This document shows positions 1,411 through 32,973 of a stretch of 35,705 nucleotides of DNA, in pieces. The DNA is from Lachnospiraceae bacterium (GTDB lineage Bacteria > Bacillota > Clostridia > Lachnospirales > Lachnospiraceae): assembly GCA_024690205.1 (NCBI GenBank), contig JAILCX010000070.1, positions 1 through 35,705 on the forward strand. The letters are read 5' to 3'. The notes below the pieces were generated by a model. It ran no database searches. It was not told the origin of the DNA and saw only the letters and a list, made by a program, of their open reading frames with translations. The position numbers were made by a program, and so were the translations under genes. Each line of letters starts with the position of its first letter. The stretch's first letter is position 1.

Positions 1411-4248
1411 TCAATCATCGCCCTTTCGGACAACGGTAAATCCACGTCTTTCAAAGAAACGGACTGCTGTATCTCCGCTAACATATTCTGACTTGTCAAT
1501 TTCCGTTCCGTAAGCCTCTTTCCATGCCATGCCCTTGATATGCTTTGCTGGAAGTTCCTCCCCATTATAAACAAGCCATATACTTGAAGGCTCTGGGTAC
1601 TCTGGTCTTTCTTCCAAAAAGCGATCAATAGCTGCCTGAACGTCCTCTGCTGTCACACCCTTCCATGTAGGTTTGGGATTGCATCCAGCCTCTTCACCTA
1701 CAGAATTCAATGCCTCAACCAGGGCATCATACTTGGCAACCATCCACTCATATATTTCTTTCTGTTTTTCGGGATTAAAGATATCCGCCTCTTTTTTGTA
1801 CAATATGCGTTTTGCTACGCTGTTTTCACGGCTCGAATACCAATCAAGCTTATCTCCGAATTTGCTTTCTATGTCTATTTTCTTATCCTCAAGTCTTGCA
1901 AAAGCCTCCGGGGTATATACATACAGAAGTATCGTGATAAACTTACTTCGTGTAATGGTGAACGATATATGGAAGTCTTCAGCTATCGTGCTGATATCAT
2001 ACCAATTCGTGCCTCTTGGATTCCTATATGCGATGTCAGATCCTCGACCATTTTCTCGACAATACTCAACAAAGTCTGTCCAAAACTTTCTCCTTTTATC
2101 ACGAAGGGTTACATCATCATTTGAAGGGTCAAAAATATTTGAAGGATCATCCACCGTTTCACTTTCGGAAGGAGCCGGGAGTTCTGGTGGGATTTCTCGT
2201 CCGTCCACCGCAAACTGAACATAAACTAATCTGTCCATCTGTTCCTGACTAAAGCTAATCTCCCACCTCTGTTCCATGAAACGAAGGAGCTTTTTACTGC
2301 GATCATATATCTTCTTTGCATCCCAATCCTGCTCCTTGGCCACTTCTATCTCGGAATGGGATCCGTTCTCATATCCTCGTCTTCCCTTGTCATTAGAGGT
2401 TTTCTTGTCATAAAAACTTACATTCTGCAAGCTCGAATTAATGCTTTGTGATAACGGGAGGAGATTTCCTAATGCTCCGGCAAGCATCTCTTTCTCATCA
2501 TCATCAAACTGCCTAAACTGATTGCGCCAATAGTAATTAGTATGAGTTTGCGGAAATATGTGTTCAATAGAGACTTTATCCTTCTCATTCTTTGAAAACA
2601 TCTCCCAGCTAATCTTATCAATGTTATTCTTCTTGGCTAACGTATACTCGTACTCATAAAGGAAATACTTAAGATTATATCCCCAGCCATAAAAACCACT
2701 ATGATTGGAAAAGTTCTTCTCTATCTTTGTAACGAAGTTCGGAACGGCATATTCAATGTTCGCATCTGCTTTTTCGCTCAAATCCTTTATCAAATCATCT
2801 ATGCTGATTTCATCAAAATAAAGGCTCCTTGTACAACGATAGTATTCACTGCTCTGATATGATGCGTTGAATCCGCCAAGCCTGAAACAGATGAATATGA
2901 ACCTCTCGATTGCCTTAAACAGTTCTGATCTCTTTTCCGGGGATATCTTCCTTTTGCTGATAGCCACCATGACAAGCGGTCTGAAGTATCCTATTCCCAC
3001 TCTTTGAAGTCGATCCACCCAAATTCTCTCATCGGGCGTAAGGTGTTCACTTGTCATAGGGAAAAAGGTATCATACCAGTATTGTGCCATATCCATGAGG
3101 CTCAATACATAATCAGATATCTCCGTAGGCTGCAGTTTGCTTAAAACCAGCGGTTCTACTTCAACTTCATCATCATCTTGATCATCATCGTCAACATCGG
3201 ACAAAACTTGTGAATCATCTTCTGTTGTAACGGACACCTTTTCAAAGATATTCTTGGCCGAAAACTTACTTAACAAGAATTTGATGTAGTCATCGCCTTT
3301 TCTTCTCGAATATGAATAATACGAGATCCAATGCGCACGAAGGAAATCATCATCTGAAAGCGGCCATTCCTCATTTTTGCCAAGATGATAGTACACCTCT
3401 TTCCAGGCATCATTGATTTTCTTCCTCAAATTGGCCTTTTCAAGTTCATCAAAAGCATCATTCGAATAAAGCGTTGTCAAATAGATAAGGCGGTTCTTCA
3501 ACAATTCGAGATTAGTCAGCTTTTTACCACGATTGTTCATGGTTTCAAATGCCACAAACACATCATAATCATCCGATATTTCATGGATGTTAAACATCAT
3601 CTGCTGGGTCAGTTTTTTATATAAGACAGAAATACCCGCCATCTTCTCCTGCTCATAAAATGACTCGAGATTACTTCTGAAGAAGTTTTTTGCATTTTTC
3701 AGATTTTTTGTGTAGTAAGTTTCATCAACGCTACCAGAATAAGGCTCATTAAAAACACGATAGCGAAGATAATCTGCGCTGGGATTATCAACCTCGTAGC
3801 CAAACAGGTATGTAGTAATAAGATTGTTTGGAGGTCTGTGCCTGCAGATGTATTTTTCGACAACTGAACTCAAAGTATCAAAACCGAGCAAAATCTTATC
3901 ATCTGATAAATCCTTGTTCTCCGGCAGTTCACGGACAAAGCATACCAGTTCGTTTATCAGAATCACAAAAGTGGTCAGCCTCTGCTGCCCATCAACAATG
4001 TGAAATGCCTCATAATCACCACTATCGATTAGCCAAGTATCCGTACCCCATCCGCTTGTATCCTTTTTGGATAATGCCTTTAAGGATAGCATCCCTGTAT
4101 AGTGATACTTATCTTCTTGTAGATTCACAAGGTCATCCCAAAAATCTATCAATTGAGACTGCTGCCATGCATATCCTCTCTGATAGTCCGGGATACGAAA
4201 TACCCTGTGTGAAAACACTTTTGATAGTTGCTGTAGCTCGTTTGCCAT
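1411..4248 (-). CDS. GmrSD-family type IV (modification-dependent) restriction endonuclease: DUF262 (DGQQR) plus DUF1524 (His-Me finger), with a C-terminal DUF4268-like extension.
   Basis: The N-terminal region has IPDYQRGYAW and HIVDGQQRLTTF (the DUF262 DGQQR motif). The middle region has SIEHIFPQ ... LGNLLPLSQSINSS (DUF1524 HNH-like motifs). The tail has RRKFWTDFVEYCRENG (DUF4268-like). Start is re-set to ATG 4246-4248 (MANELQQLSKVF), which has a GGAGG RBS 5 nt upstream. The ORF-track 5' extension to 4305 overlaps the upstream gene. Confidence 0.85.
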   Translation of the reverse strand: MANELQQLSKVFSHRVFRIPDYQRGYAWQQSQLIDFWDDLVNLQEDKYHYTGMLSLKALSKKDTSGWGTDTWLIDSGDYEAFHIVDGQQRLTTFVILINELVCFVRELPENKDLSDDKILLGFDTLSSVVEKYICRHRPPNNLITTYLFGYEVDNPSADYLRYRVFNEPYSGSVDETYYTKNLKNAKNFFRSNLESFYEQEKMAGISVLYKKLTQQMMFNIHEISDDYDVFVAFETMNNRGKKLTNLELLKNRLIYLTTLYSNDAFDELEKANLRKKINDAWKEVYYHLGKNEEWPLSDDDFLRAHWISYYSYSRRKGDDYIKFLLSKFSAKNIFEKVSVTTEDDSQVLSDVDDDDQDDDEVEVEPLVLSKLQPTEISDYVLSLMDMAQYWYDTFFPMTSEHLTPDERIWVDRLQRVGIGYFRPLVMVAISKRKISPEKRSELFKAIERFIFICFRLGGFNASYQSSEYYRCTRSLYFDEISIDDLIKDLSEKADANIEYAVPNFVTKIEKNFSNHSGFYGWGYNLKYFLYEYEYTLAKKNNIDKISWEMFSKNEKDKVSIEHIFPQTHTNYYWRNQFRQFDDDEKEMLAGALGNLLPLSQSINSSLQNVSFYDKKTSNDKGRRGYENGSHSEIEVAKEQDWDAKKIYDRSKKLLRFMEQRWEISFSQEQMDRLVYVQFAVDGREIPPELPAPSESETVDDPSNIFDPSNDDVTLRDKRRKFWTDFVEYCRENGRGSDIAYRNPRGTNWYDISTIAEDFHISFTITRSKFITILLYVYTPEAFARLEDKKIDIESKFGDKLDWYSSRENSVAKRILYKKEADIFNPEKQKEIYEWMVAKYDALVEALNSVGEEAGCNPKPTWKGVTAEDVQAAIDRFLEERPEYPEPSSIWLVYNGEELPAKHIKGMAWKEAYGTEIDKSEYVSGDTAVRFFERRGFTVVRKGDD

Positions 4249-4259
4249 AATGCCTCCGT

Positions 4260-4619
4260 CTAATTCATCAACTCTTGCATCCGTTTGATGATCATATTGA
4301 ACCATCGCATTGACTCTTCATCCCGGATGCTCTCACCCATAGCCCAATGATTGTAATACCGCCACTGCGAGAATATGGCGGATCCCAATAGCTGAATATC
4401 GTCAATGGAATCGATGACCTTCTCCAGGGCATCTGGATTCCTAAAAGCGTCATGACCGTACTTCTCCTCGAAGGCATGACCGCAGTCCATGTCAAAGCCG
4501 AGGTCTCTGAAACCATCTCCGATGGCGGGATCATCGACTATCTGAATATCCGGCACGTTGCTATCATTCAGCATATCCGCAAATTTGCTTATGTACTCGC
4601 TTATCTTTTTATTAACCAT
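4260..4619 (-). CDS. Hypothetical 119-aa protein, first gene of the GmrSD operon.
   Basis: ORF MVNKKISEYISKFADMLND... with its stop 11 nt before the GmrSD start. No recognisable motif and a weak RBS. Confidence 0.5.
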   Translation of the reverse strand: MVNKKISEYISKFADMLNDSNVPDIQIVDDPAIGDGFRDLGFDMDCGHAFEEKYGHDAFRNPDALEKVIDSIDDIQLLGSAIFSQWRYYNHWAMGESIRDEESMRWFNMIIKRMQELMN

Positions 4620-6760: not shown

Positions 6761-9010
6761 TTAATTTATTTTCTCCAATCTGGCGAATGCGGCATACATT
6801 ATCTTGGTGCCGTGATCGTCAAAATCCACGGTGACTTTATAATCTCTCGGACCCGATTCCATATCCGTGACTGTTCCCTCACCGAATTTAACATGACGGA
6901 CGCGGTCTTCCACATCATAATCGGGTTTGGATCCGGGTACTGCCTTTTGTGAAGAAGGAACACCTTTGCTAATCCCTGCTGCCTTAAGAGAATCAAGTCC
7001 TCCTCCGAAAGGAACCGGTGGCTTAACAGATCTTTCTTTTCGACCCGTGGATGAACGGTCCTCAAAAGAAGTCCTTTGATGAACCCTGTTATCCATAAGC
7101 GCCTTTGGTATTTCCTCTATGAAGCGGCTTACCGCATTAAACTGAAGTTCTCCTCTTACCAGGCGTGTCTTTGCGCAGGTTAAGGTCAGATCCTCTTTTG
7201 CCCTTGTAATACCGACATAAGCAAGCCTTCTTTCTTCTTCAACAAGCGTAGGATCGTCTTCCGAAAGAGACATGATACTCGGGAAAAGACCGTCTTCCAT
7301 TCCCGCAAGATACACGTTCTTAAACTCAAGACCCTTTGCAGAATGCAGTGTCATAAGCATTGCCCGGGGTACAGATGAGTCAACTTCATCTATATCCGCC
7401 ACTAACGCAACTTCCTCAAGGAGGCTCCTCAGTGATGCATTCTCATTGTTTTTCTCAAAATCTACCACCTTGTTCAGGAACTCTTCAACGTTCTCTATAC
7501 GGCTCTGATTCTCGTCGCTTGAGTCCGCTTCAAGCTCCGACATATATCCGGTAACATCGAGCACTTCCCTGATAAAATCGACAAGCCCCATGTTCCCGGC
7601 ATCTTTCCTTAAGGCATTTATCATATCGGCAAAGTCTTTAAGCTTTGACGATGCTTTGGCTATTGTGGGTATCTCATCGGCAATACATAGGGTATCAAAG
7701 AAGCTTGATCCATGCGACTGGGCATACTCAGTCACCTTTGATATCGTCGTGTTACCTATTCCCCTTTTGGGCACGTTTATTATCCTGCGTACCTGCAGAT
7801 CATCCCTTCCGTTATCGATGGTCTTAAGGTAAGCAAGTACGTCCTTTATCTCTTTTCTTGAATAGAAGTTAACACCACCCACCACGTTATACGGGATGCC
7901 TTCGTAAATGAACTTTTCTTCTATCAGTCTGGACTGTGCGTTCGTTCTGTATAAAACAGCCGTATCCGAAATATCCAGATTTTCCTTGCGCTGCTTTCTT
8001 GCGATGTCATCCGCTATGAATTCAGCCTCTTCATAAGCATTTTCAAACTGTCTGAAGTGGATGAGCGGTCCGCCGTCTTTTTCAGTCCAAAGACTCTTTG
8101 CTTTTCTTCCCTTGTTGTTGGAGATCACGGCATTTGCGGCATCAAGTATGTTTTGAGTCGAGCGGTAGTTCTGCTCGAGCCTTATAACCTTTGTATCAGG
8201 ATAATACTGCTCAAAATCAAGTATATTCCTGACATTTGCACCGCGGAATTTATATATGGACTGATCGTCATCTCCGACTACGCACAGATTTCCGTCATGT
8301 CCGGTAAGGAGCCTTATCAGTTTAAACTGCGAAGTATTGGTATCCTGGTACTCATCGACCATGATGTACTTAAACTTCTTTTGGTAGTTATCCAAAACAT
8401 CAGCTTCGTTTTCAAGCAACAGAACTGTGTTCATGATAAGGTCGTCAAAGTCCATGGCATTGTTCTTTTTGAGGATCTTCTGGTATTCGGTATATGCCTG
8501 TGCGATCCTCTTTAATCTGTAATCCTCGCCATATCTCATCATGTATTCGTCAGGTGCAAGCAGCTCGTCTTTAGCCGAAGATATCTCATTAAGGATGGTC
8601 TTTTCCTTAAGCATCTTAGTGTCTATATCAAGGTTTTTGCACACATTCTTCATTACGCTCTTTGAATCATCGGCATCATAGATCGTAAATCCGTTATCGT
8701 ATCCCAGTCTGTCGGCAAATCTCCTTAATATCTTTACGCAGCTGCTGTGGAACGTTGCTATCCACACACTCTCCGAGCCATAGCCCACAAGCTTGTCAAC
8801 TCGTTCTCTCATCTCGCCGGCGGCTTTGTTTGTAAAGGTTATCGCCATGATGTTGTATGGCTCGACATTCATTTTGTCGATAAGATAAGCCACCCTGTGG
8901 GTAAGGACTCTTGTCTTTCCGGAGCCCGCACCCGCAAGTACCAGTACTTTTCCTTCTGTTGTAAACACAGCCTCTTTTTGCTGCGGATTTAGCGTATCGT
9001 ATATCGACAT
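6761..9010 (-). CDS. pcrA: ATP-dependent DNA helicase PcrA (UvrD/Rep superfamily 1).
   Basis: LNPQQKEAV, Walker A AGAGSGKT, and helicase motifs (TFHSSC, VDEYQDT, VGDDDQSIY, YRSTQNIL, GIPY, MTLHSAKGLEF, VGITRAKE). C-terminal Tudor-like tail. Confidence 0.9.
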   Translation of the reverse strand: MSIYDTLNPQQKEAVFTTEGKVLVLAGAGSGKTRVLTHRVAYLIDKMNVEPYNIMAITFTNKAAGEMRERVDKLVGYGSESVWIATFHSSCVKILRRFADRLGYDNGFTIYDADDSKSVMKNVCKNLDIDTKMLKEKTILNEISSAKDELLAPDEYMMRYGEDYRLKRIAQAYTEYQKILKKNNAMDFDDLIMNTVLLLENEADVLDNYQKKFKYIMVDEYQDTNTSQFKLIRLLTGHDGNLCVVGDDDQSIYKFRGANVRNILDFEQYYPDTKVIRLEQNYRSTQNILDAANAVISNNKGRKAKSLWTEKDGGPLIHFRQFENAYEEAEFIADDIARKQRKENLDISDTAVLYRTNAQSRLIEEKFIYEGIPYNVVGGVNFYSRKEIKDVLAYLKTIDNGRDDLQVRRIINVPKRGIGNTTISKVTEYAQSHGSSFFDTLCIADEIPTIAKASSKLKDFADMINALRKDAGNMGLVDFIREVLDVTGYMSELEADSSDENQSRIENVEEFLNKVVDFEKNNENASLRSLLEEVALVADIDEVDSSVPRAMLMTLHSAKGLEFKNVYLAGMEDGLFPSIMSLSEDDPTLVEEERRLAYVGITRAKEDLTLTCAKTRLVRGELQFNAVSRFIEEIPKALMDNRVHQRTSFEDRSSTGRKERSVKPPVPFGGGLDSLKAAGISKGVPSSQKAVPGSKPDYDVEDRVRHVKFGEGTVTDMESGPRDYKVTVDFDDHGTKIMYAAFARLEKIN

Positions 9011-9031
9011 ATCTATTCGGCAGTTCCTTTA

Positions 9032-10156
9032 TCAGCCCATGAAGTAGTAGATAAGGGCAAACAGTGCTATCACGATTATGATCGTAAGTATTACCTTTAT
9101 TGCAGATATCGGAGTCTTTCCGTATACCTTACCGGTCTGTCCGTTAACAGCAAACTGGTATATCTTGTCCTTATACTTGTAGCTTGAGATCCATACCGGC
9201 AAAAGAAGATATTTAAACGTCACGGCTGAAAAAGAGCTGTTAACGTTTAAGCCCCTTACATGATCGGCATGATTTTCATTAAGTATCTTCGATGTTATGG
9301 AAGAATTGATCTTTCCCTTGATCGATGCCTTGGCTTTTTCCCAGGCATCCTTGACACCTACGGAATACTTCTCGGCACCGAAACCTGCTACGTATTCAGG
9401 CTTATATATCTTATTATCCGCAGTATCATAAGGTTCTATACCGCGAAGCAGATTTTTGTCATGCTGCTCGGTCCCGCATACAAGTTCATCGTCAAAGAAC
9501 TCGTCATAGTTTCCTCTTGTATTGTACCAATCGGTAACAGTGACCTCACTATCTCCCTTCTTGACCTTGCGGTCCTTACCGTACTGTGCGGTGTAGGAAG
9601 ATGCGGTTTGTGTATCGAATGTCCAATAGGGAAGATACATACCCTTGAAATTCTTGGGCTTAGCGCTTTCCTTGGCAGCCTTCGGGCAGTAGAATTTATG
9701 CTTTATCCAGTTAATGAATCTGTTTCCGGCTTCTTTCTGGTCTATTTTGAAAGGTATAACGCCTCCCGGAGCCATCGAGTCATTTCCACCGGCTTCGGTA
9801 ACCTGATTAGATCCGCAATAAGGGCAAACTGATGAGATAACCTGTGCATCATAGATGGATTCAGCTCCACAGCTTTTACAGATTATGGTCTTTGTTGCGG
9901 TTCCCCAATCATGATTGGCTGTTGATTCAGCATCTTCTAAAGTTATCTCGGCTGCAGATGTGCTTCCCCCGTTTTGGGAAGAAGGCTTATCTTCTTTATT
10001 GCTGACAGCATTTTTTATCTCTTCGGTATGTCCACAATAAGGACACTTTAGACCCCCGGTCACAGGATCAAAATCCATAGTTCCGTCACATGCGGGACAC
10101 TTTCTGTCAGTTTCTTTTAGCGTATTTACGATATTTGAATCGAATTCGTCGGGCAT
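9032..10156 (-). CDS. Membrane-anchored double zinc-ribbon protein (C-terminal TM helix). Partner of the upstream SPFH protein. Possibly YdjG-like.
   Basis: Start re-set to ATG 10154-10156 (MPDEFDSNIV), with an AAGGAG RBS 8 nt upstream. The ORF-track M is an alternative codon. Two CxxC...CxxC ribbons (CPACDG..CPYCGH and CKSCGA..CPYCGS). C-terminal TM is AIKVILTIIIVIALFALIYYF. Confidence 0.6.
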   Translation of the reverse strand: MPDEFDSNIVNTLKETDRKCPACDGTMDFDPVTGGLKCPYCGHTEEIKNAVSNKEDKPSSQNGGSTSAAEITLEDAESTANHDWGTATKTIICKSCGAESIYDAQVISSVCPYCGSNQVTEAGGNDSMAPGGVIPFKIDQKEAGNRFINWIKHKFYCPKAAKESAKPKNFKGMYLPYWTFDTQTASSYTAQYGKDRKVKKGDSEVTVTDWYNTRGNYDEFFDDELVCGTEQHDKNLLRGIEPYDTADNKIYKPEYVAGFGAEKYSVGVKDAWEKAKASIKGKINSSITSKILNENHADHVRGLNVNSSFSAVTFKYLLLPVWISSYKYKDKIYQFAVNGQTGKVYGKTPISAIKVILTIIIVIALFALIYYFMG

Positions 10157-10230
10157 ATCAAAACTCCTTTTAAAACCGCGAGAGGATGTCTCCACCCTCT
10201 CGCTTTGTTACCGTTATTCGGAATTATTTC

Positions 10231-11541
10231 TTATTGAGCATCAGAGTCGTCAAAAACATCTCCGCACTCAGGGCAGAACTTCGGAGGATGTGTAGGATCC
10301 TCGGGAGTCCATCCGCACTTGTCACACTTGTATAAAGGTGCACCGGCGGGTTTCTTTGCTCCGCACTCAGAGCAGAACTTGCCGAGATTTCCGGTCTTTC
10401 CGCATGAGCATGTCCATCCCTCCTCGGGTACCGGTTGAGGCTTTCCGCACTCGGCACAGAACTTACCGGTGTTTCCGGTCTTTCCGCACGAACATGTCCA
10501 TCCCTCTTCCTTGGGTGCTCCTACTACGGGAGCAGGAATAGGTGTTCCCTGCGCCTGCTGGTATACGGGTGCGTTTGCACCTGCCATGTTAGCCATGTTC
10601 ATTCCGGCAAAAGCCATAACAGGGCCGGCAGCGGTATTTGAAGCAGCTGCCTGCATAGCAGAAGCTGTAGCTCCGGTCATCATACCCTGTCCGAGAGTCG
10701 GATTTGAAAGGGCAGCTGCTCTCTGGAGCTCTTTTATCATGTTCTCGTCTTCTTCGGATGCCTTTAATGTGTTGACACCGAATGAAACGATCTCTATTCC
10801 TCTTAAGTCTCTCCACTGATCTGAGAGCTCTTCGTTAAGTGCGTTTGCAAGTTCCTTTGTATGTCCGGGAACGGCTGAATATCTGATACCCATCTCTGAA
10901 ATTCTTGCAAATGCAGGCTGAAGAGCTGTAAGAAGCTCTGTCTTTAACTGAGAATCGATCTTGTCTCTTGTATATTCATCAGTTACATTGGCACATACAT
11001 TTGTATAGAAAAGGATGGGATTGGTGATCCTGTATGAGTACTCACCGTTACATCTTATTGAAATGTCAACGTCAAGTCCTATACGGGCATCAACGACTCT
11101 GAAAGGAACGGGATTAGCCGTACCGTATTTGTTTCCGATGATCTCCTTGGTGTTGAAGAAATAGATCCTCTGATCCTTTCCCGTATCTCCGCCAAAGGTA
11201 ATCCTCTTACCCATTGTCTTGAATGACTCGAGGATGCTTGTTCCGAGATTTCCTGAAAAGATGGAAGGCTCGGTAGACGTATCATAAGTAAATTCACCGG
11301 GCTCAGCACAAAGCTCAACGACCTTACCCTGATCTACTATGATCATGCACTGTCCGTCGTTAACTGCGATCACCGAACCGTTAGTAATGATATTATCCTG
11401 TCCTTTGTTGTTCCCCTTTGTTCTCTTTTGGCCTTTGGTAACAAGAACGTTCGCATCCATTGAATCACAGTAGAAATACTCTTTCCACTGATCTGAAAGC
11501 TGCGAGCTGACTCCGCCAACCACTGCACTAATAAGTCCCAT
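10231..11541 (-). CDS. SPFH/band-7 (stomatin-prohibitin-flotillin) family protein with a C-terminal array of zinc ribbons (COG4260 / YdjI-like).
   Basis: 436 aa with a GGAGGTG RBS. The globular N-terminal 300 aa has the architecture typical of PF13421-type SPFH proteins. The C-terminus has three tandem GWTCSCGKTGNxGKFCxECG ribbons plus CDKCG..CPECG. Confidence 0.65.
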   Translation of the reverse strand: MGLISAVVGGVSSQLSDQWKEYFYCDSMDANVLVTKGQKRTKGNNKGQDNIITNGSVIAVNDGQCMIIVDQGKVVELCAEPGEFTYDTSTEPSIFSGNLGTSILESFKTMGKRITFGGDTGKDQRIYFFNTKEIIGNKYGTANPVPFRVVDARIGLDVDISIRCNGEYSYRITNPILFYTNVCANVTDEYTRDKIDSQLKTELLTALQPAFARISEMGIRYSAVPGHTKELANALNEELSDQWRDLRGIEIVSFGVNTLKASEEDENMIKELQRAAALSNPTLGQGMMTGATASAMQAAASNTAAGPVMAFAGMNMANMAGANAPVYQQAQGTPIPAPVVGAPKEEGWTCSCGKTGNTGKFCAECGKPQPVPEEGWTCSCGKTGNLGKFCSECGAKKPAGAPLYKCDKCGWTPEDPTHPPKFCPECGDVFDDSDAQ

Positions 11542-11731
11542 TTAACACCTCCATAGTGATTATTCGGCATTCCTAACATTCCGAAACACCGCGAATTATA
11601 TTATAACATATAAAAGGTTCAGATTACACATATCTTTTTTAATCGTTTTTGTCGCAAACGGAATGAATTTCTGATACAATAAAAGTGGTATGTGTTCTTT
11701 GACGCATGCCGCCTATATAGGGGGTAACTTT

Positions 11732-13375
11732 ATGGCTATATACGTAAATCAGCTCGGATATATCACCGATACCAAAAAGATCGCTGTGTCCACAAAACCC
11801 TGCAATTTCCAGGTTATACGTTTAAGTGACCAGCACAGCGTTTTAGATGGTACGACTGGTCCCAAGTTCAGGGATACGGCATCCGGCGATGATGTTTATG
11901 ATATAGATTTTTCTGATCTTACCGAAGAGGGTGAATACTATATTCTCGCAGGTAACAGCAGCAAATCTCATAACTTTAAGATTTCTAACGATGTATACAA
12001 AAACCTTATGGTCGATGTTTCAAGGTGCCTTTATTACCAAAGATGCGGTATAGCTCTTGACGAAGGCCATGCAGGTATTTACACGCACGAAGCATGTCAT
12101 ACCGAGCCCGCGATAATGCTCGATGATTTTGTAAAGAATAATCCCGAACCCAAATATTTTGACATGACAGGCGGATGGCATGATGCCGGGGATTTCGGCA
12201 GGTATTCTACCGCCGGTGCCGTTGCTTTGGGCCATATCCTTTATGCGTTCGATCTTTTCCCGGAAAGCTTCGGATATTCAATGAACATTCCCGAAAGCGG
12301 AAACGGCATACCCGATATCTTAAACGAGTGTGCTTATGAACTCCGTTGGCTTTTAAAGATGCAGTCAAAAGACGGCGGTGTCTACCACAAATTAACGGCC
12401 TGGCGCCATGCAGAGTTCGTTATGCCCGAAGATGACCATGACAGGTTCATCATCTATCCTGTTTCAAGCCTTGCAACAGCAGACTTTGTAGCGATCATGG
12501 CTCTGGCCTCAAGGGTATACCGTCCTTTCATGCCAGAGTTTGCCGATACGATGCTTAACGCTGCAATAAAGAGCAGCCTGTGGCTTGATACTCATTCATA
12601 TGTTGGATTTACCAACCCCGAGGGAAGCAATACCGGAGAATACGGAGACGAAGAAGACGTTGACGAAAGACTCTGGGCTGCTGCCGAAATGTTAAGAGCA
12701 GACAAAGCAAACAGCGCGAAATACTTAAAGATCCTGACAGCTTTATCGAAAGATGTTGTTTCAAAATCCGATTTCGGATGGATAGATGTTTCGGGATTTG
12801 CCACGATATCGATCCTTTCGGATCCCGATCATTCAAGCGGCATGCTTGAGTCAAGCTACAAAAACGAATTGCAAAAGAATGCTACCCGATTTGTGGAAAT
12901 GTCAAAGAATTCAGGTTATCACCTTGCAATGGAAAGCGAAGATTTTGTCTGGGGATCGAATATGGTCGTTGCGAACAGATCGATACTTTTTGCAATGGCT
13001 TACCTGCTTATCGAGGGGCCTTCCCAGGAGAAATTCAAAAACGCCGCCCTTTCGCAGCTTCACTACCTGCTCGGCCGTAATGCTCTTGATATTTCTTATA
13101 TTACAGGCGAAGGAGAAAATGCGTATTCACACCCTCATAACAGGGTAACCGCTTCAGACAATATAGAAAAGCCGATGCCCGGATGGGTTGCCGGAGGCCC
13201 CTTCAGGACTCCTTCGGATGCAGCAGCGATGTCTGCGATCCCCAAGGGAACACCTCCTATGAAATGCTATCTTGATGAGGTCGGAAGCTACTCAACAAAC
13301 GAGATCACGATCTACTGGAACTCGCCCGTTATCTTCCTTTTGGCATTCATCAATTCAAAGATAGCCAAAAACTGA
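11732..13375 (+). CDS. Glycoside hydrolase family 9 endoglucanase/cellodextrinase with an N-terminal Ig-like (CelD_N) domain. No signal peptide, so probably cytoplasmic.
   Basis: Start re-set to ATG 11732 (MAIYVNQLGY), with a GGGGGT RBS. GH9 signatures are GGWHDAGD, HPHNR, and the catalytic acid block STNEITIYWNSP near the C-terminus. No hydrophobic leader. Confidence 0.85.
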   Translation: MAIYVNQLGYITDTKKIAVSTKPCNFQVIRLSDQHSVLDGTTGPKFRDTASGDDVYDIDFSDLTEEGEYYILAGNSSKSHNFKISNDVYKNLMVDVSRCLYYQRCGIALDEGHAGIYTHEACHTEPAIMLDDFVKNNPEPKYFDMTGGWHDAGDFGRYSTAGAVALGHILYAFDLFPESFGYSMNIPESGNGIPDILNECAYELRWLLKMQSKDGGVYHKLTAWRHAEFVMPEDDHDRFIIYPVSSLATADFVAIMALASRVYRPFMPEFADTMLNAAIKSSLWLDTHSYVGFTNPEGSNTGEYGDEEDVDERLWAAAEMLRADKANSAKYLKILTALSKDVVSKSDFGWIDVSGFATISILSDPDHSSGMLESSYKNELQKNATRFVEMSKNSGYHLAMESEDFVWGSNMVVANRSILFAMAYLLIEGPSQEKFKNAALSQLHYLLGRNALDISYITGEGENAYSHPHNRVTASDNIEKPMPGWVAGGPFRTPSDAAAMSAIPKGTPPMKCYLDEVGSYSTNEITIYWNSPVIFLLAFINSKIAKN

Positions 13376-25388: not shown

Positions 25389-26354
25389 ATGATCGCGAAA
25401 ATCTGTAAAAGACGTGTAAAAGAACTCGCTACTCTTATAGCCGTTACGGTTTCGGTTACAGCTTTGAACATTACTTCTTTAGCTGCCCCTGTTGTTATGC
25501 CGGACGGCTCATTTTTTGATGCGGAATACTATGCAGCGAACAACCCTGACGTCGTTGCTGCTTATGGCAGTGATAATGCGGATTTCATGTATGAGCACTA
25601 TATAACATACGGTAAGAAAGAAGGCCGTCTTCCTTATGCCGGTGCGGATAAAACAGTTGCACCGGTTCAGCCTCCCCAATCTTCAACGGTTACCATCCCC
25701 GGGCTTGGCGTTCCCAAGATCCCCAACGGAAGCCGTACCACATCAACTGACGCTTCGGCATATTTTGCAAGAAGCGTGTTCGTAGGCGATTCGGTCCTTG
25801 CCGGATACAGAAACTATCTTGCCAAGCAGAAAAGTTCTCCCGTATCATCGGGAATTTTCCTTGCAGCTGCAAGTTACTCTGCTGCACATGCCCTTAACGA
25901 AAAAGATTCTCTTCACCCCATATACAAAGGAAAGAAACAGCCTGTCTGGACAGCTATATCACAGATGGATGTAGACCGCATATTTATCATGTTCGGAACA
26001 AATGATCTTGTTGTAAAGGATGCCGCCCCTGCTTCCGATGATGTTCTTGCTTTAGTCGACAAGATAAGGCAGTATAACCCCGGCAAGGAGATCCATATAA
26101 TCAGCATGTCACCGGTGTACGCAGGTACAAGCAAGGGGGCTATGAACAACCCGACGATAAAGATATATAATCAGCTCCTTTTGCAGGGTGCAATGGAAAG
26201 AGGTGTATATTACCTGGACCTTAACTCGCACCTTCTTAATTCAAACGGAGATCTGATCCCCAAATACTGTTCGGACCGCTATGTTCACCAGACATATGCT
26301 TCTTATTCGGAAGTCTGGGATCCTTTGTTTACTTCATACGCGTTAGGAGAATAA
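25389..26354 (+). CDS. Secreted SGNH/GDSL-family hydrolase (putative polysaccharide or teichoic-acid O-acetyl esterase/transferase partner).
   Basis: Signal peptide (LATLIAVTVSVTALNITSLAA). SGNH block I is FVGDSVLAG. Block III is MFGTNDL. DxxH candidate is DRYVHQ. Confidence 0.7.
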   Translation: MIAKICKRRVKELATLIAVTVSVTALNITSLAAPVVMPDGSFFDAEYYAANNPDVVAAYGSDNADFMYEHYITYGKKEGRLPYAGADKTVAPVQPPQSSTVTIPGLGVPKIPNGSRTTSTDASAYFARSVFVGDSVLAGYRNYLAKQKSSPVSSGIFLAAASYSAAHALNEKDSLHPIYKGKKQPVWTAISQMDVDRIFIMFGTNDLVVKDAAPASDDVLALVDKIRQYNPGKEIHIISMSPVYAGTSKGAMNNPTIKIYNQLLLQGAMERGVYYLDLNSHLLNSNGDLIPKYCSDRYVHQTYASYSEVWDPLFTSYALGE

Positions 26355-26357
26355 ATC

Positions 26358-27092
26358 ATGAAGAAGTCATTGAGAACCGTCCCCTTTGTCACGTTGGTTA
26401 TGTTGGTGTTGTTGTTAAGCGGATGCCGAAAGGCTGAGGCACCTGCTCAGGAGCCTGTGGCCGCAGTTGAAGAAAAAAAGGCTGATACAGCAGCTGAGAC
26501 ACCCGTACCGACTAAGGCTCCGGTTGTTGAAAAAGAAACCAAGGAAGAAACCGAGGTTAATAAATCCGAAGAAGAAAAAACCGACACTTCCGAACCCGCC
26601 AAAGAAGAGACCGCTGATCAGGCAGAAACAGATAAGGATTCCGCAAAAACAGGATCCGATGATGCAGCAAAGGCTGAAGAAAACAAAGCAGAAGAAAGCC
26701 AAACTAATGCGGTTGCTTTAAAAGATGTATACAACAAGATTGCAGGAAGCGTTGCTCTTCCCGAAATGTATTTTGCGGATGCAGGCTTTTTGATGAACTA
26801 TTACGGTATTGATGCTTCCAAACTTGAAGATTATGTTTTTGCTTCATGCCTTGATTCAACCTCAGCAGACTCCATCATCCTCATGAGATTAAAAGATGAA
26901 TCTTCTGCAGACGAAGTCATCGGTGGCCTTAACATGCTCCTTGAGCAGATGAGCATAGAGCTTGAAAGCTACAATCCCGAAGCCAATGAACTTGTAAAAG
27001 CCGCTAAGGTAAGACGTAACGGCAAAAACATTGACCTCATCATACATAAGGACAGAAACACAATATTGTCTGTCATAGACAGCTCATTATAG
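26358..27092 (+). CDS. Lipoprotein with a long E/K/T-rich low-complexity linker and a DUF4358-like C-terminal domain.
   Basis: Lipobox LLLSGC. The acidic linker spans ~26450-26700. The C-terminal domain (ALKDVYNKI...MYFADAGFLMNYYGID...SIILMRLKD) resembles DUF4358, which is commonly encoded beside MBOAT/DltD-like genes in Clostridia. Confidence 0.55.
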   Translation: MKKSLRTVPFVTLVMLVLLLSGCRKAEAPAQEPVAAVEEKKADTAAETPVPTKAPVVEKETKEETEVNKSEEEKTDTSEPAKEETADQAETDKDSAKTGSDDAAKAEENKAEESQTNAVALKDVYNKIAGSVALPEMYFADAGFLMNYYGIDASKLEDYVFASCLDSTSADSIILMRLKDESSADEVIGGLNMLLEQMSIELESYNPEANELVKAAKVRRNGKNIDLIIHKDRNTILSVIDSSL

Positions 27093-27104
27093 AAAGAAGA
27101 ACCC

Positions 27105-28547
27105 ATGGTTTTTTCAGGTCTTCCTTTTTTGATCTTTTTTCTGACAACTCTCATTCTTTGTTATTTTCCACTGGGAGCTGTCTTTAGGCGCATAAATATT
27201 CGATCCGGCATTGAAGTCAGAAACGGTATACTTCTGATTTTCAGCTTGTTTTTTTATGCATGGGGTGAGCCTAAGTGTATCTTTTTGCTCATCCTGTCTT
27301 CTTTTGTCGATTATATGGATGGTCTTCTTTTGGAAAGATTTGACGACCGTCCTGCACTGAGAAAACTTTTCCTCTCTGTTTCTTTGATCATCAATTTTTC
27401 GCTCCTTGGAGTAATGAAATACTCCGACTTTGTTGTAGGTACTTTAAATTCTCTTACCGGAGCGGGCCTTACTCTTCCCGGGATCGCCCTTCCCATCGGC
27501 ATAAGCTTTTATACATTCCAGACTACCAGCTATTCTATAGATGTATACAGACGCGAAGTAAAGGCAGAGCGGAATTTCTTCCGTTACCTTACATACATTT
27601 CGATGTTCCCCCAGCTTATCGCAGGTCCCATCGTACGTTACTCACTTATCAAAGAACAACTTGTATCAAGAAAGACAACTTTAGACAGTTTTTCCAGCGG
27701 TCTTCGCCGTTTTCTCATGGGACTTTTCAGAAAAGTCCTTATAGCCAACGAGCTTGGTGCGTTATGGGATCATCTAAGAGGTGTACAGAACCTTTCCGTT
27801 ACCGGAGCATGGCTTGGATTTCTGGTTTTCACCTTACAGCTTTATTATGATTTCAGCGCATATTCGGATATGGCCATCGGCCTAGGTCTTATGCTCGGCT
27901 TTCACTTTAACGAAAACTTCATCTATCCGCTTTCGGCTGTATCACTGACTGACTTTTGGAGACGCTGGCACATCTCTTTGTCTAGCTGGTTCCGTGACTA
28001 CGTTTATATCCCTCTTGGCGGAAACAAAAAAGGAAAGCTACGGCAGCTTCTTAATCTTGCGATAGTATGGTTCCTCACGGGACTTTGGCACGGCGCATTC
28101 TGGAATTATGTTCTTTGGGGAATCTATCACGGAACGATACTTGTCCTTGAAAAATTCATCTGGGGAAAGCATCTTGAAAAAGCGCCCCGGCTCGTAAGAC
28201 ACCTTTATACTTTGCTTATCGTGATCTTCGGATTTGGAATATTCTATTTTGAAGACATGAACGCATTAACACAGTATCTTACCTTTTCATTCGGAACAGC
28301 CGGCAATGCTCTTTTGGGAAATGAATTATTATGGGCGTTTGGCAATTACCTTCCGGTCCTTATATTTGCGATCCTTTTCATGTTCCCGGTCTTTCCGAAG
28401 ATCAGGGATTACATCCATACACTCGGAGAGAAAAAAGAAAGCATCGCACGTTTTGCGGCCGGATCACTCTCCGTTTTACTGCTGATACTTTGCATAGCAA
28501 ACCTTGTAAGAGATTCCTTTAACCCTTTTTTGTATTTCAGGTTTTGA
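27105..28547 (+). CDS. MBOAT-family membrane-bound O-acyltransferase (AlgI/DltB-like).
   Basis: Multi-TM protein. The invariant MBOAT His block is FWRRWHISLSSWFRDYVYIPLGGN. Confidence 0.85.
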   Translation: MVFSGLPFLIFFLTTLILCYFPLGAVFRRINIRSGIEVRNGILLIFSLFFYAWGEPKCIFLLILSSFVDYMDGLLLERFDDRPALRKLFLSVSLIINFSLLGVMKYSDFVVGTLNSLTGAGLTLPGIALPIGISFYTFQTTSYSIDVYRREVKAERNFFRYLTYISMFPQLIAGPIVRYSLIKEQLVSRKTTLDSFSSGLRRFLMGLFRKVLIANELGALWDHLRGVQNLSVTGAWLGFLVFTLQLYYDFSAYSDMAIGLGLMLGFHFNENFIYPLSAVSLTDFWRRWHISLSSWFRDYVYIPLGGNKKGKLRQLLNLAIVWFLTGLWHGAFWNYVLWGIYHGTILVLEKFIWGKHLEKAPRLVRHLYTLLIVIFGFGIFYFEDMNALTQYLTFSFGTAGNALLGNELLWAFGNYLPVLIFAILFMFPVFPKIRDYIHTLGEKKESIARFAAGSLSVLLLILCIANLVRDSFNPFLYFRF

Positions 28548-29764
28548 TGATAATGAAAAAACACTCTGTTAAAGATCTGATAAAATACATACCCGAATTT
28601 GCTGCGATCACGGTTTTGTTTGCGTTTGCAGTCATGTTCATGCTCTCATACCAAAAGGAGTTTTCCGAAAACGAAAACCGCGTCTTAGCCTCATGTCCCG
28701 CTCCTTCTTTGGATGGCATTTTCGATCACTCATTCATGGATTCCTTTGAGGATTATATATCGGATCAGTTTCCTTTAAGAGATGACCTTTTATCTTTTTC
28801 TGTCATCGCATCAAGAGCAGAAGGCAAAAAAGAAGTAAACGGAGTGATCTATGCCAAAGAAGGTCCTGATAACATCCGTCTCATCGACCGATACAACAAG
28901 CCTCAAAACGCTGACAAGTTCATAGATGCCGTAGCCAGATTAAAAGATGGAGTAACCTCAGCCGATATCACGGTAATGGTCGTTCCGACTTCATACTGGT
29001 TATATGAAGATGAAATGCCCAAAACGACCCTTAATACAGAACGTCCGCTTCAAAAGGACACTTTAAAATACATTAATGACGGGATAGACAACCTGGGCGC
29101 ATCAACTAAGGTTAATATGGTTGATAACATATTTGACCGCCTTACGGACGGCCGAAAGGCAGGTCTCAACATCTTTTACCGGACCGATCATCACTGGACA
29201 ACAAGCGGTGCCTATATGGGGTATCTTGCGCTTTCGCCATACCTTATGCTTCCCGAAAGAAAAGATCTCCTTTCAAATCTTACATGCATCAGCGATTCCT
29301 TTTACGGCACGACATGGTCAAAAGTCGTTGACCGCTCTGTTAAACCTGACACGATGGATATATATGATTCACCCGAATGGAAAGACCATCTTACGGTAAC
29401 ATATGAAAATACCGGCGAGTCTTTTAATTCTCCGTATAACCGCGATTATCTTAATGTCAAAGATAAGTATTCCGTTTTCCTTAATAACCAGCATTCCCTT
29501 ATTACCATAAAGAACGAAAATGCCGACCTTACAAGAACTGATGGGGAGGAGCATCGTGCGCTTGTTGTGATAAAGGACAGCTATGCTAACTCCCTTATCC
29601 CGTTCCTTATCGATCATTATGAGACCATATGGGTATTCGACCCAAGATATTACAGAGGCAGCATAACCGAATGGATAAATGATCATCCCGAAGTTAAAGA
29701 TGTCCTTGTGCTTTATAACCTTTCCACCATGGATAACGACAGAGGCCTTGGTGCGATATACTGA
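28547..29764 (+). CDS. DltD/AlgJ/AlgX-like O-acyltransferase accessory protein (DHHW family).
   Basis: ATG 28547 overlaps the MBOAT stop in a TGATGA arrangement. N-terminal TM anchor. Signature YRTDHHWTTSGAYMGY (the DHHW motif of the AlgJ/DltD family). Confidence 0.7.
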   Translation: MIMKKHSVKDLIKYIPEFAAITVLFAFAVMFMLSYQKEFSENENRVLASCPAPSLDGIFDHSFMDSFEDYISDQFPLRDDLLSFSVIASRAEGKKEVNGVIYAKEGPDNIRLIDRYNKPQNADKFIDAVARLKDGVTSADITVMVVPTSYWLYEDEMPKTTLNTERPLQKDTLKYINDGIDNLGASTKVNMVDNIFDRLTDGRKAGLNIFYRTDHHWTTSGAYMGYLALSPYLMLPERKDLLSNLTCISDSFYGTTWSKVVDRSVKPDTMDIYDSPEWKDHLTVTYENTGESFNSPYNRDYLNVKDKYSVFLNNQHSLITIKNENADLTRTDGEEHRALVVIKDSYANSLIPFLIDHYETIWVFDPRYYRGSITEWINDHPEVKDVLVLYNLSTMDNDRGLGAIY

Positions 29765-29768
29765 TAAC

Positions 29769-29850
29769 AAGTCAACGGGGACGGTTCTCTTTGAACCTGT
29801 TCTCATTGGGTTCAATGGGTAAGTCAAAGAGAACCGTTCCCGTTGAGCCT
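29769..29850 (+). repeat. GGGGACGGTTCTC-core repeat, locus 2. Convergent inverted pair able to form a ~23-bp-stem hairpin with a 29-nt loop.
   Basis: Arm 1 (29772-29794) is TCAACGGGGACGGTTCTCTTTGA. Arm 2 (29824-29846) is TCAAAGAGAACCGTTCCCGTTGA, which is the reverse complement with 1 mismatch. The loop contains a small nested hairpin GAACC-N11-GGTTC. Confidence 0.75.
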
Positions 29851-29887
29851 GAACCCACCATTGTGTTTTAGTAGAAAGAGGTGCCGA

Positions 29888-31534
29888 ATGACCAAAAGAC
29901 TCACAGCCGTTTTACTAACGATCAGCCTGGCATTTAGCAGCACGGCATGTTCTGCCGAAGAAGTTAAAGGCAAGGCGGACTCCGCTAAAAATTCCATAGA
30001 AAAAGCTGCCGACGAAGCGGCCGATACGATCGGAAAAACAGCATCTGACGTATCCGAGGTTGTTAGTTCCAAAGCAGCCGAGGCTGTCGGATATGCTTCG
30101 GAATGGTACTCAAATATCGATACGGCAAAGTTTAAGCAGGGCTGGAATTACTCGGTTGAGTTCCTGGGCGAAAAGTATTCGGAAGCGGTAGACAGTGAAT
30201 ATATCAGATCCGTTGCGGAAAATATGGCAAAGATACGCTCCAACATGGAAAGCGCATCTTCCGCTCTCATAGATTCTGCAATCGACAAAGAACAGCTTGC
30301 AATGAAGTGGGCAACGGAAACCTATTCCGACGTTAAAGATGCAAGCCTTGAGATGATCGAAGAGAACTCTTATCTTAAGTACTTTTCGTCTGCTGATAAG
30401 GAAGCATCAAAGGAGGCCATGAACCTTCTTGTATCCTATTATGATTACGCCCGGCAGATGTCATCGCCCGTTGAACTTAAGGATTATATTGATGATTTCT
30501 GTGCCAAAGAAAGCGCTGATCTTAATGCCTTATATAAATCAGTTCTTAATGATCAGGAGCTTATAATTCCTGATGAGCAAATGCCCGGCACCATCGCCTA
30601 TATCACCGGCATATCGGACAAAATGCCCGGGGAAACTCAATCAAAATTCCTTTCCAAGGATTCCCTTTACGAACGCACGGTAAAATCCCTTAAGAAAAGA
30701 TATGAAGATAACAGTTTAAGTGAAAGCAAGGCTCCCACAGCGGCAGAGATAATCGCACTTGCTCAGTTGGCCGAGGAAGGAACCTTACAGCCTTCTGATT
30801 TTAACGTATCGGTATCAACACTCCTTTGCCCCAAATACGTTCTTAAACAGGCCTGCTATTCCGTTTCCGGAATGTCAGATTTTGATGATGTTGTTAATAT
30901 AGGTTCAAGTGTCTATTCCATACTGAAGGAAGCGGCATCCGATGGGCATATAGATACCGACGCTCTCAAAAAGGGGGATATGAAAACTGTTCTGGCTTCA
31001 TCCGACGGTTTTGTTGAAGGTTCGGTAAGTCAGTTTGTTATATCGGGATGCAGAGAAGGAAACTGGGGAGAATATATAAAAGATGATCCTTCCCTTTGTG
31101 CCGTGATCTCGGTTCTCGTCATTGATGGAGCAGTAATTGGATATGATCTTTGCCGCGGCGATATCACACTTGACGAATACGGAAACATGATGGCGGACAT
31201 GCTCTTTACGTCACTGCTTTCCCTTCCTACAAACGCGGTCGTTATCGCGCTTTTACCTTCTTTGTATATGACGGCTCTTGCAGGCTCCATGGCCGGCGTG
31301 ACTATGGTTGCTCTCGGATATGAAGATTCGGAAGCTGCAAAGAGCGCGATGCTTGATGTTGTAAACGGCGGAGGATTTGAGGCATTTGTTCCCGCAGGAA
31401 CTACCGAAGCCATAAGCGTAGCCAAAAGCAAGATAGAATCTCTAAGCATGAAAAACAAGATCTCATCATTTAAAGATACGATGATATCAACCACCAAAGA
31501 GGGATACATCAACATAGAAACGATCCCCGATTAA
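29888..31534 (+). CDS. Hypothetical 548-aa lipoprotein of unknown function.
   Basis: Start re-set to ATG 29888 (MTKRLTAVLLTISLAFSSTAC lipobox), with an AGAGGTG RBS. The ORF-track start is upstream. The C-terminal third contains hydrophobic/Gly-rich segments. No family recognised. Confidence 0.6.
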   Translation: MTKRLTAVLLTISLAFSSTACSAEEVKGKADSAKNSIEKAADEAADTIGKTASDVSEVVSSKAAEAVGYASEWYSNIDTAKFKQGWNYSVEFLGEKYSEAVDSEYIRSVAENMAKIRSNMESASSALIDSAIDKEQLAMKWATETYSDVKDASLEMIEENSYLKYFSSADKEASKEAMNLLVSYYDYARQMSSPVELKDYIDDFCAKESADLNALYKSVLNDQELIIPDEQMPGTIAYITGISDKMPGETQSKFLSKDSLYERTVKSLKKRYEDNSLSESKAPTAAEIIALAQLAEEGTLQPSDFNVSVSTLLCPKYVLKQACYSVSGMSDFDDVVNIGSSVYSILKEAASDGHIDTDALKKGDMKTVLASSDGFVEGSVSQFVISGCREGNWGEYIKDDPSLCAVISVLVIDGAVIGYDLCRGDITLDEYGNMMADMLFTSLLSLPTNAVVIALLPSLYMTALAGSMAGVTMVALGYEDSEAAKSAMLDVVNGGGFEAFVPAGTTEAISVAKSKIESLSMKNKISSFKDTMISTTKEGYINIETIPD

Positions 31535-31609: not shown

Positions 31610-32251
31610 TTATACAGTTATAGGAGCATCACAATAATCACATGTGCAGGATGTTCCTCTTCTCATTGTCATCTTAGCTCCGCAACCGGGGCAGGCAACC
31701 GTAACAAGTTCTCCGCCGACGGGAGCTTCACCTGCAAAGGAACCTGTAGCCTGAGTCTGCTGTGAGATGGCAGGTCTTACGAATGTAACGATGTGTGAGT
31801 TGGTATCAAGTGTTGTATTCTTTAAAACGCCGATTGCAATAAGCTGAGATATCTCTTTTTCAGCAGTTGCTACGGTAACGCCGCACGCTGCAGCTATAGC
31901 GTTAACATCGTCTATATCCTGGTTGATGATCATGTCAATATAATCTCTGTTTCTTGCTGCGGTTTTTGCTATCTTCGTTGAATAGTAGATCAAAACACCG
32001 CCACCGATTATCATGAACAGTCCCCATATCCACTTGTTGTCTCCGCTAAACAGATTAGCGATACCAAGGATTATAAGGATAGCTCCTCCGAGAATATAAA
32101 TCTTCTGGTTTGATGCTCCCTTGAACACGGCCTGTTTGTCCATGCTGCTTCCCTTAGCTCTTAACAGGATAAGAACTATTCCTGCCGGCCAGAAAATAAG
32201 GAACGCCAAAATGATGACTATTGTTGATAAATACCAAGGACGCTGTTGCAT
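31610..32251 (-). CDS. Membrane protein with N-terminal TM helices and a C-terminal zinc ribbon. Third gene of SPFH cluster II.
   Basis: TM helices LSTIVIILAFLIFWPAGIVLILL, ILGGAILIILGIANLF and GLFMIIGGGVLIYY. C-terminal ribbon is CPGCGAKM...CTCDYC. Confidence 0.55.
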   Translation of the reverse strand: MQQRPWYLSTIVIILAFLIFWPAGIVLILLRAKGSSMDKQAVFKGASNQKIYILGGAILIILGIANLFSGDNKWIWGLFMIIGGGVLIYYSTKIAKTAARNRDYIDMIINQDIDDVNAIAAACGVTVATAEKEISQLIAIGVLKNTTLDTNSHIVTFVRPAISQQTQATGSFAGEAPVGGELVTVACPGCGAKMTMRRGTSCTCDYCDAPITV

Positions 32252-32270
32252 ATTAGTTTACCCCCGTTTC

Positions 32271-32972: not shown

Positions 32973-32973
32973 A

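Follow-up and report, generated by a model that had tools for sequence, protein, structure and literature searches.

Two adjacent genes on the minus strand of a contig from a Lachnospiraceae bacterium (assembly GCA_024690205.1, contig JAILCX010000070.1, positions 1 to 35,705; this whole stretch is called the window) encode a soluble SPFH protein of the YdjI/SamI type and, downstream of it, a tail-anchored protein with two zinc ribbons that is a full-length homolog of Bacillus subtilis YdjG/SamG. The locus, termed cluster I, is a reduced, reordered variant of the known PspA-SamGHI system with an expanded zinc-ribbon tail, and is widespread in Lachnospiraceae. We think it probable, by analogy with B. 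subtilis, that cluster I is a two-gene module of the SamI/SamG type, in which an oligomer of the cytosolic SPFH protein is recruited to, or regulated at, the inner membrane surface by the SamG-like protein. The architecture of SamG and its role in recruiting YdjI/SamI are already known from B. subtilis; what is new is the two-gene, SPFH-first, three-ribbon arrangement. SPFH proteins are universal, and their mechanism is poorly understood. SamI is a rare soluble SPFH scaffold that depends on a dedicated membrane receptor, and in hundreds of Lachnospiraceae species from gut and rumen the SPFH-SamG part of the system alone is retained, in one fixed order and with neither PspA nor SamH. The retention of this part points to the likeliest conserved core of the B. 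subtilis system, and the pair offers a simpler, two-protein system for the recruitment of an anchorless SPFH protein and for binding by a zinc-ribbon tail. The features of the two genes, all on the minus strand, are as follows (residue numbers refer to the 436- and 374-amino acid (aa) proteins).

10231..11541 (-): samI-like gene, coding for a 436-aa soluble SPFH (Band_7_1) protein
10729..11397 (-): SPFH/Band_7_1 domain, residues 49-271 (Pfam envelope)
10504..10704 (-): low-complexity Ala/Gly/Met/Pro-rich linker, about residues 280-346 (A17 G8 P7 M7 of 67 residues)
10264..10494 (-): three Cys4 zinc ribbons in tandem, residues 350-426 (seen in the sequence itself)
9032..10156 (-): samG-like gene, coding for a 374-aa tail-anchored double zinc-ribbon protein (open reading frame (ORF) and Shine-Dalgarno sequence)
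10034..10099 (-): zinc ribbon 1 of the SamG-like protein (C20, C23, C38, C41)
9815..9880 (-): zinc ribbon 2 of the SamG-like protein (C93, C96, C111, C114)
9119..9781 (-): conserved alpha+beta core of the SamG-like protein, residues about 126-346, with two units of a helix plus a long beta-hairpin
9038..9103 (-): C-terminal transmembrane (TM) helix of the SamG-like protein, a tail anchor, residues 352-373 (a helix at 352-373 in the AlphaFold2 (AF2) model)

The partner is a YdjG/SamG homolog

The partner aligns with B. subtilis YdjG/SamG in BLASTP over 341 columns with 31% identity (E 1e-48), and scores 148 bits against it in phmmer; the B. subtilis pspA-ydjGHI reference was taken from a metagenome contig, located via a published ydjG primer sequence. 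The alignment pairs residues 19-355 of the partner with residues 6-315 of YdjG, and so runs from the first zinc ribbon into the C-terminal TM segment. YdjG is known to combine a pair of zinc ribbons with a YpeB-related domain and a TM segment (PMC11237479), and the full-length homology, together with the ribbons, the YpeB-related domain and the TM helix, places the partner in the YdjG/SamG family ('TFIIB-type zinc ribbon-containing protein'). Common and invariant in the partner and SamG are both ribbons and the motifs GMYxPxW, LLPVW and NGQTGKVxGKxPIS. In an alignment of 74 homologs, drawn from both the window's and the Bacillus-type subfamilies, all but one of the eight ribbon cysteines are invariant, the exception, C96, being conserved in at least 90%. 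An initial annotation of the window, made from the sequence alone, had flagged cluster I as a candidate uncharacterised membrane system. It was right about the YdjI-like SPFH protein, and it named YdjG and YdjH as partners of YdjI, but the YdjG/SamG identity of the partner itself was missed, and in view of that full-length homology the label was too strong.

The AF2 model of the SamG-like protein (predicted local distance difference test (pLDDT) 84, predicted TM-score (pTM) 0.81) contains the two ribbons, with strands at 88-119 for the second, the two hairpin units and the terminal TM helix. The only hydrophobic segment is at the extreme C-terminus (Kyte-Doolittle peak 2.87, residues 344-374) so that, judging from the sequence, the whole of the remaining polypeptide would lie on one side of the membrane. 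The core resembles, weakly, protein-interaction domains of the PepSY/YpeB type. The membrane-anchored, 374-aa double zinc-ribbon protein proposed in the initial annotation as the operonic partner is thus borne out, including its start: the mechanical ORF (9032-10195, minus strand) begins at a GTG and has 387 codons, but we placed the start at the ATG at 10156 because it is preceded by an AAAGGAG Shine-Dalgarno sequence and coincides with the N-termini of the homologs.

In GenBank the partner is called 'hydrogenase maturation nickel metallochaperone HypA'. This is a misannotation, as the HypA match (25 bits against a threshold of 28.9) covers only the second zinc ribbon, and its correction is of practical use. 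Anti-TRAP, Lar and RpoP were likewise rejected; these matches were below threshold and covered one ribbon only. The match to PF08271 (Zn_Ribbon_TF), over residues 32-68 of the 387-aa ORF, has 24.6 bits and falls under the cut-off of 29. Foldseek gave no match at E≤0.001; its top matches, beta-pore-forming toxins with TM-scores of ~0.1, are spurious and arise because the model has very long beta-hairpins, and a pore-forming function was rejected. A sequence search of the PDB with the partner returned generic zinc ribbons only.

The SPFH protein is soluble and carries three zinc ribbons

The 436-aa protein matches Pfam PF13421 (Band_7_1) with E 3.6e-17 and 63.2 bits, against a cut-off of 24. The initial annotation had staked its assignment to the YdjI/COG4260 type on such a match, and both the assignment and the triple zinc-ribbon tail stand, the latter with 12 cysteines read in the sequence (C350/C352/C362/C365, C378/C380/C390/C393 and C406/C409/C423/C426). 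The alpha/beta fold of the SPFH domain was confirmed, and the AF2 model has beta strands at 124-172 and 249-261 and helices at 193-247. The core is followed only by short helices (residues 263-321), by the linker, with pLDDT <50 at residues 321-346, and then by the ribbons. No TM-like segment was found by Kyte-Doolittle analysis. The profile match, the fold, and the soluble nature of a protein ending in a linker and a zinc-finger tail all place it within Band_7_1 (COG4260, YdjI/SamI type).

The ribbon cysteines are invariant or nearly so in the alignment of homologs. Among 56 full-length proteins of the window's type (its own and 55 from related loci), 51 have exactly three ribbons, and the motif of the last one, CDKCGWxPEDPxxPPKFCPEC, is almost invariant among them. 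Pfam zinc-ribbon models gave no match above threshold on the tail (DZR, E 0.031). A PDB sequence search with the SPFH protein found no match, and NCBIfam has no family for it or for the SamG-like protein.

The pair is conserved across Lachnospiraceae

When one genome per species was scanned, at least 573 species proved to have a relative of the partner; the entire SamG family comprises 7171 clusters at 50% identity (E≤0.001). We examined 83 loci, 80 from the species scan and three fetched earlier. In 56 loci the SamG-like gene directly follows, on the same strand, an SPFH gene of the window's type; in three others an SPFH gene is close by (in one case, Peptoniphilus, immediately downstream), in 20 there is none despite at least 1.5 kb of upstream sequence, and in four the SamG-like gene is too near the contig end to judge. 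Hence, where upstream sequence suffices for a call, the SPFH-then-SamG order is found in 56 of 76 loci, and the pair is conserved in related genomes, the point at which the initial annotation had put itself at risk. In a neighbour-joining tree every member of the window's clade is paired, while 13 of the 20 unpaired SamG-like genes, and one of the four near a contig end, form one clade. The flanking genes vary: hpf and a PALP enzyme are found in some loci, and pcrA and the GH9 gene only in the closest relatives. Because the flanks change from locus to locus, the pair is a conserved unit. The SamG-like genes that lack an SPFH gene indicate that SamG-like proteins are evidently able to work in other contexts.

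The absence of an adjacent pspA, as noted in the initial annotation, extends to the 35.7-kb window. Neither PspA nor TPM homologs were found by phmmer within 8 kb in the 83 loci or in the window, and hidden Markov models (HMMs) built from three PspA or TPM sequences, applied at E≤1 to the same loci and window, matched only in two B. subtilis control loci. The canonical operon of pspA, Zn_Ribbon_TF, TPM and Band_7_1 genes does occur in other Clostridia (L086, from a record labelled Epulopiscium sp., and L088, Sporanaerobacter), so that the two-gene form is an arrangement of its own rather than the default of Clostridia. We also looked up five more distant relatives of SamG (31-33% identity); in two of these the SamG-like gene follows directly on a Band_7_1 gene, again without PspA or TPM.

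In these two distant pairs the SPFH tail, which follows a similar linker, is a SHOCT-like sequence read from the translation (L093, 361-2487) or a GYF_2 domain found by Pfam (L094, 3835-6266). An ECF sigma/RskA anti-sigma pair lies 2.7 kb downstream of the pair in L094. A third distant relative (L090, 3810-6119) has tandem SamG-like paralogs of 368 and 372 aa, followed by a 695-aa protein without a Pfam match; no SPFH gene lies within 5 kb of the tandem. In one clade of SPFH-less genes the SamG-like gene is found just upstream of secDF in nine loci (L020, L027, L028, L031, L040, L047, L050, L061 and L068; around 8000-13000), six of which have an adjacent radical-SAM/SPASM gene and six a recJ-like DHH gene further downstream. 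In five loci (L028, L040, L047, L061 and L068) the solo SamG-like gene is immediately preceded by a gene for a 515-555-aa protein without a Pfam match; the two inspected (L040 and L068) combine a zinc ribbon at the N-terminus (MKYCxKCG...CIRCG) with a single TM segment and a large domain at the C-terminus.

Relation to the PspA-SamGHI system

In B. subtilis, deletion of ydjG or ydjH abolishes the membrane foci of YdjI and PspA, and the two-hybrid pairs are YdjG-YdjH, YdjH-YdjI, YdjH-PspA and YdjI-PspA (PMC8581546). A preprint renames ydjGHI as samGHI and describes SamI as a cytosolic SPFH protein recruited by SamG-SamH; SamI is proposed to restrain signalling by the SamGH membrane complex, as its loss leads to constitutive SamGH-dependent signalling and to global changes in transcription that are suppressed by deletion of samH (bioRxiv 10.64898/2026.02.06.704340). 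YdjH/SamH is a TPM-domain protein.

The window's proteins share the architecture of their counterparts. Both the partner and SamG have two N-terminal zinc ribbons, an alpha+beta core and a C-terminal TM helix; like SamI, the SPFH protein has the Band_7_1 domain, no anchor, a low-complexity linker and a C-terminal zinc-ribbon element, in the same order. In both systems the genes are co-directional and adjacent. The differences, however, are several. The module has two genes instead of four, and the gene order of the pair is reversed, with the SPFH gene first. In the canonical system pspA (PF04012) is in the operon and the gene for the TPM protein SamH/YdjH (PF04536) lies between the other two; here the only space between the genes is a 74-nt gap, the next gene is pcrA, and neither pspA nor a TPM-type samH occurs within 8 kb. 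The SPFH tail has three ribbons compared with the one of SamI, and there is an extra N-terminal segment bearing a basic loop. The partner has an 18-residue N-terminal extension relative to SamG and ends right after the TM helix, lacking a Gly-rich tail.

These differences bear on a reading that we regard as rather unlikely, namely that the pair works as PspA-SamGHI does, with pspA and samH (TPM) encoded elsewhere in the genome, and that the SPFH scaffold brings PspA to the damaged membrane. The four-gene operon in L086 and L088 means that the parts are accessible to the lineage, Ravi et al. propose that shortened Band-7 operons could draw on PspA homologs from another part of the genome (PMC11237479), and our view is that of a 35.7-kb contig of a metagenome-assembled genome. 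Against this, not even the sensitive HMMs found PspA or TPM near any of the 83 loci, and the window's proteins form a separate subfamily (31% and 22% identity to SamG and SamI) with its own conserved features, the N-terminal extension, the three ribbons and the missing Gly-rich tail, which suggests adaptation to a different set of partners.

The signalling phenotype of samI mutants raises a further alternative, in which the tail-anchored protein would be an active regulator or sensor, its TFIIB-like ribbons binding nucleic acid or a transcription component, and the SPFH protein would act chiefly as a brake on it, as has been proposed for SamI and SamGH. A DNA-binding or regulatory role has been suggested for the ribbon of YdjG (PMC9239133), and SamG-like genes also occur solo or in tandem with no SPFH gene. 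We find this improbable: the signal set free by loss of SamI in B. subtilis is ascribed to SamH, a protein that this locus lacks, the zinc-ribbon Pfam matches are generic and below threshold, no helix-turn-helix or other DNA-binding domain is present, and the core has the weak resemblance to protein-interaction domains described above.

Layout, flanks and expression signals

The spacer between the SPFH and samG-like genes is 74 nt (10157-10230), so that the initial annotation placed the genes correctly, with a gap one nucleotide too long (75 nt). The pair is located, as was claimed, between pcrA (6761-9010), which starts 21 nt past the stop of the samG-like gene, and a divergent GH9 gene (11690-13375). 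No terminator was called between the samG-like stop and pcrA (window 9010-9034); owing to this and to the 21-nt gap, pcrA is possibly co-transcribed with the samG-like gene. PcrA is also downstream in 16 related loci, though mostly at ~0.8 kb. Two candidate expression signals were noted.

10178..10203 (-): intercistronic stem-loop with an 11-bp stem followed by GGUUUU, just 5' of the Shine-Dalgarno sequence of the partner
11600..11608 (-): candidate extended -10 promoter element TGtTATAAT, ~55-60 nt 5' of the SPFH start codon (read from the sequence, weak evidence)

The 91-nt intercistronic segment has a minimum free energy of -26.9 kcal/mol (z -3.4), and none of 200 shuffled sequences folds as well. 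With a stricter search, 20 of 57 related pairs showed a terminator-like hairpin with a T-run in the corresponding spacer; in the remaining pairs the genes are tightly packed or overlapping. In B. subtilis a terminator is found between pspA and ydjG (PMC8581546), and in both systems a hairpin inside the operon could set the product ratio. The hairpin of cluster I may be a partial terminator that favours the scaffold over the anchor. A consensus promoter scan made no call upstream of the operon.

The flanks also bear on whether cluster I could be an anti-phage defence module, or a cargo module of a mobile element, that contains an SPFH protein. A GmrSD-type restriction gene lies 5 kb away (1411-4305), and some sources formerly named YdjG-type relatives phage replication proteins. 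Yet the flanking genes are housekeeping genes (pcrA, GH9, hpf and PALP enzymes), the pair is vertically conserved across Lachnospiraceae, and PADLOC has no defence model that matches either protein at E≤0.01. The GC content of 0.48 for positions 10001-11000, against 0.39-0.46 in most other 1-kb windows, is a small rise without a clear boundary. We consider a defence or cargo role most improbable.

A proposed two-protein model for recruitment of the SPFH protein

We base a mechanism for cluster I on the finding that B. subtilis SamI, which lacks an anchor, depends on SamG and SamH for its membrane localisation. In the proposed mechanism the SamG-like protein would expose its soluble part to the cytoplasm and dock the SPFH protein at the inner leaflet, where the latter would oligomerise into a sub-membrane scaffold. 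Such a scaffold might have a stabilising or organising effect on the membrane, or it might restrain the signalling of its membrane partner under envelope stress; by analogy, the module may act in membrane homeostasis or in the envelope stress response. The likely adaptor end of the SPFH protein is the flexible linker with the three C-terminal zinc ribbons, and in the distant versions of the gene pair the tail is exchanged for other small domains. Reduced read-through at the intercistronic hairpin might yield more scaffold than anchor. The module would work without PspA and SamH, or would use copies encoded elsewhere in the genome.

Several observations weigh against this model. In B. subtilis the link to YdjI is through YdjH, and no direct YdjG-YdjI contact was highlighted (PMC8581546). 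SamH, the reported contact to the SPFH protein in that organism, is absent near the pair; either the SamG-like protein of this subfamily makes direct contact with the SPFH protein, or the partners are encoded elsewhere. The SPFH protein is 22% identical to YdjI/SamI (E 4e-11) and is no closer to it than is a second SPFH paralog in the window, so that orthology of the scaffold to YdjI is not established. Moreover, a quarter of the sampled SamG-like genes have no adjacent SPFH gene, and the hairpin of the window lacks a proper U-tract and, with just four T in its tail, does not pass the stricter terminator test.

A broader proposal, which we offer tentatively and as the less likely outcome, is that the SPFH-SamG pair is an autonomous, PspA-independent and ancestral core, to which PspA and SamH were added as a dyad acquired in Bacilli and some Clostridia. 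A tail-anchored zinc-ribbon/PepSY-like receptor would then hold a soluble SPFH oligomer, and the exchangeable SPFH tail (three ribbons here, SHOCT-like or GYF elsewhere) might recruit lineage-specific clients. The literature on Band_7_1, PF13421 and COG4260 that we searched contained nothing specific to the two-gene variant.

Other SPFH systems and neighbouring genes

The module of cluster I differs from HflK/C, the flotillins FloA/FloT, stomatin and QmcA-YbbJ in that its SPFH protein has no N-terminal TM segment or hairpin anchor, and no long coiled-coil or flotillin domain. It also has no NfeD or FtsH neighbour, the neighbours being the SamG-like gene, pcrA and GH9. Unlike in these anchored scaffolds, attachment to the membrane is presumably left to a second protein, the tail-anchored one.

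The second SPFH paralog belongs to cluster II (31610-34326, minus strand), in which the SPFH gene (32974-34326) is followed by two genes for membrane proteins (32271-32972 and 31610-32251). The 450-aa SPFH protein matches Band_7_1 with 128 bits and has four C-terminal zinc ribbons. The first of the downstream genes codes for a polytopic membrane protein of 233 aa, predicted to have 3-4 TM segments and a helical tail, the last for a protein of 213 aa whose TM segments are N-terminal and whose CxxC...CxxC ribbon is C-terminal; neither protein has a Pfam match or a relation to SamG or SamH. The clusters are alike in that an SPFH protein made of Band_7_1, a low-complexity linker and multiple ribbons is followed by co-directional genes for membrane proteins. 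However, the two SPFH paralogs are only 23% identical, and the ribbon partner of cluster II has the opposite topology to that of cluster I, a difference that the initial annotation had pointed out.

Elsewhere in the window, the restriction gene (minus strand) codes for a 964-aa GmrSD-type (type IV) endonuclease with GmrSD_N and GmrSD_C domains, followed by DUF4268. Positions 25389-31534 (plus strand) hold genes for a GDSL-like lipase, a DUF4358 protein, an MBOAT O-acyltransferase and DHHW/AlgX-like proteins, and resemble a polymer O-acylation cluster; these are followed by a gene for a 563-aa putative lipoprotein without a Pfam match, which adjoins cluster II.

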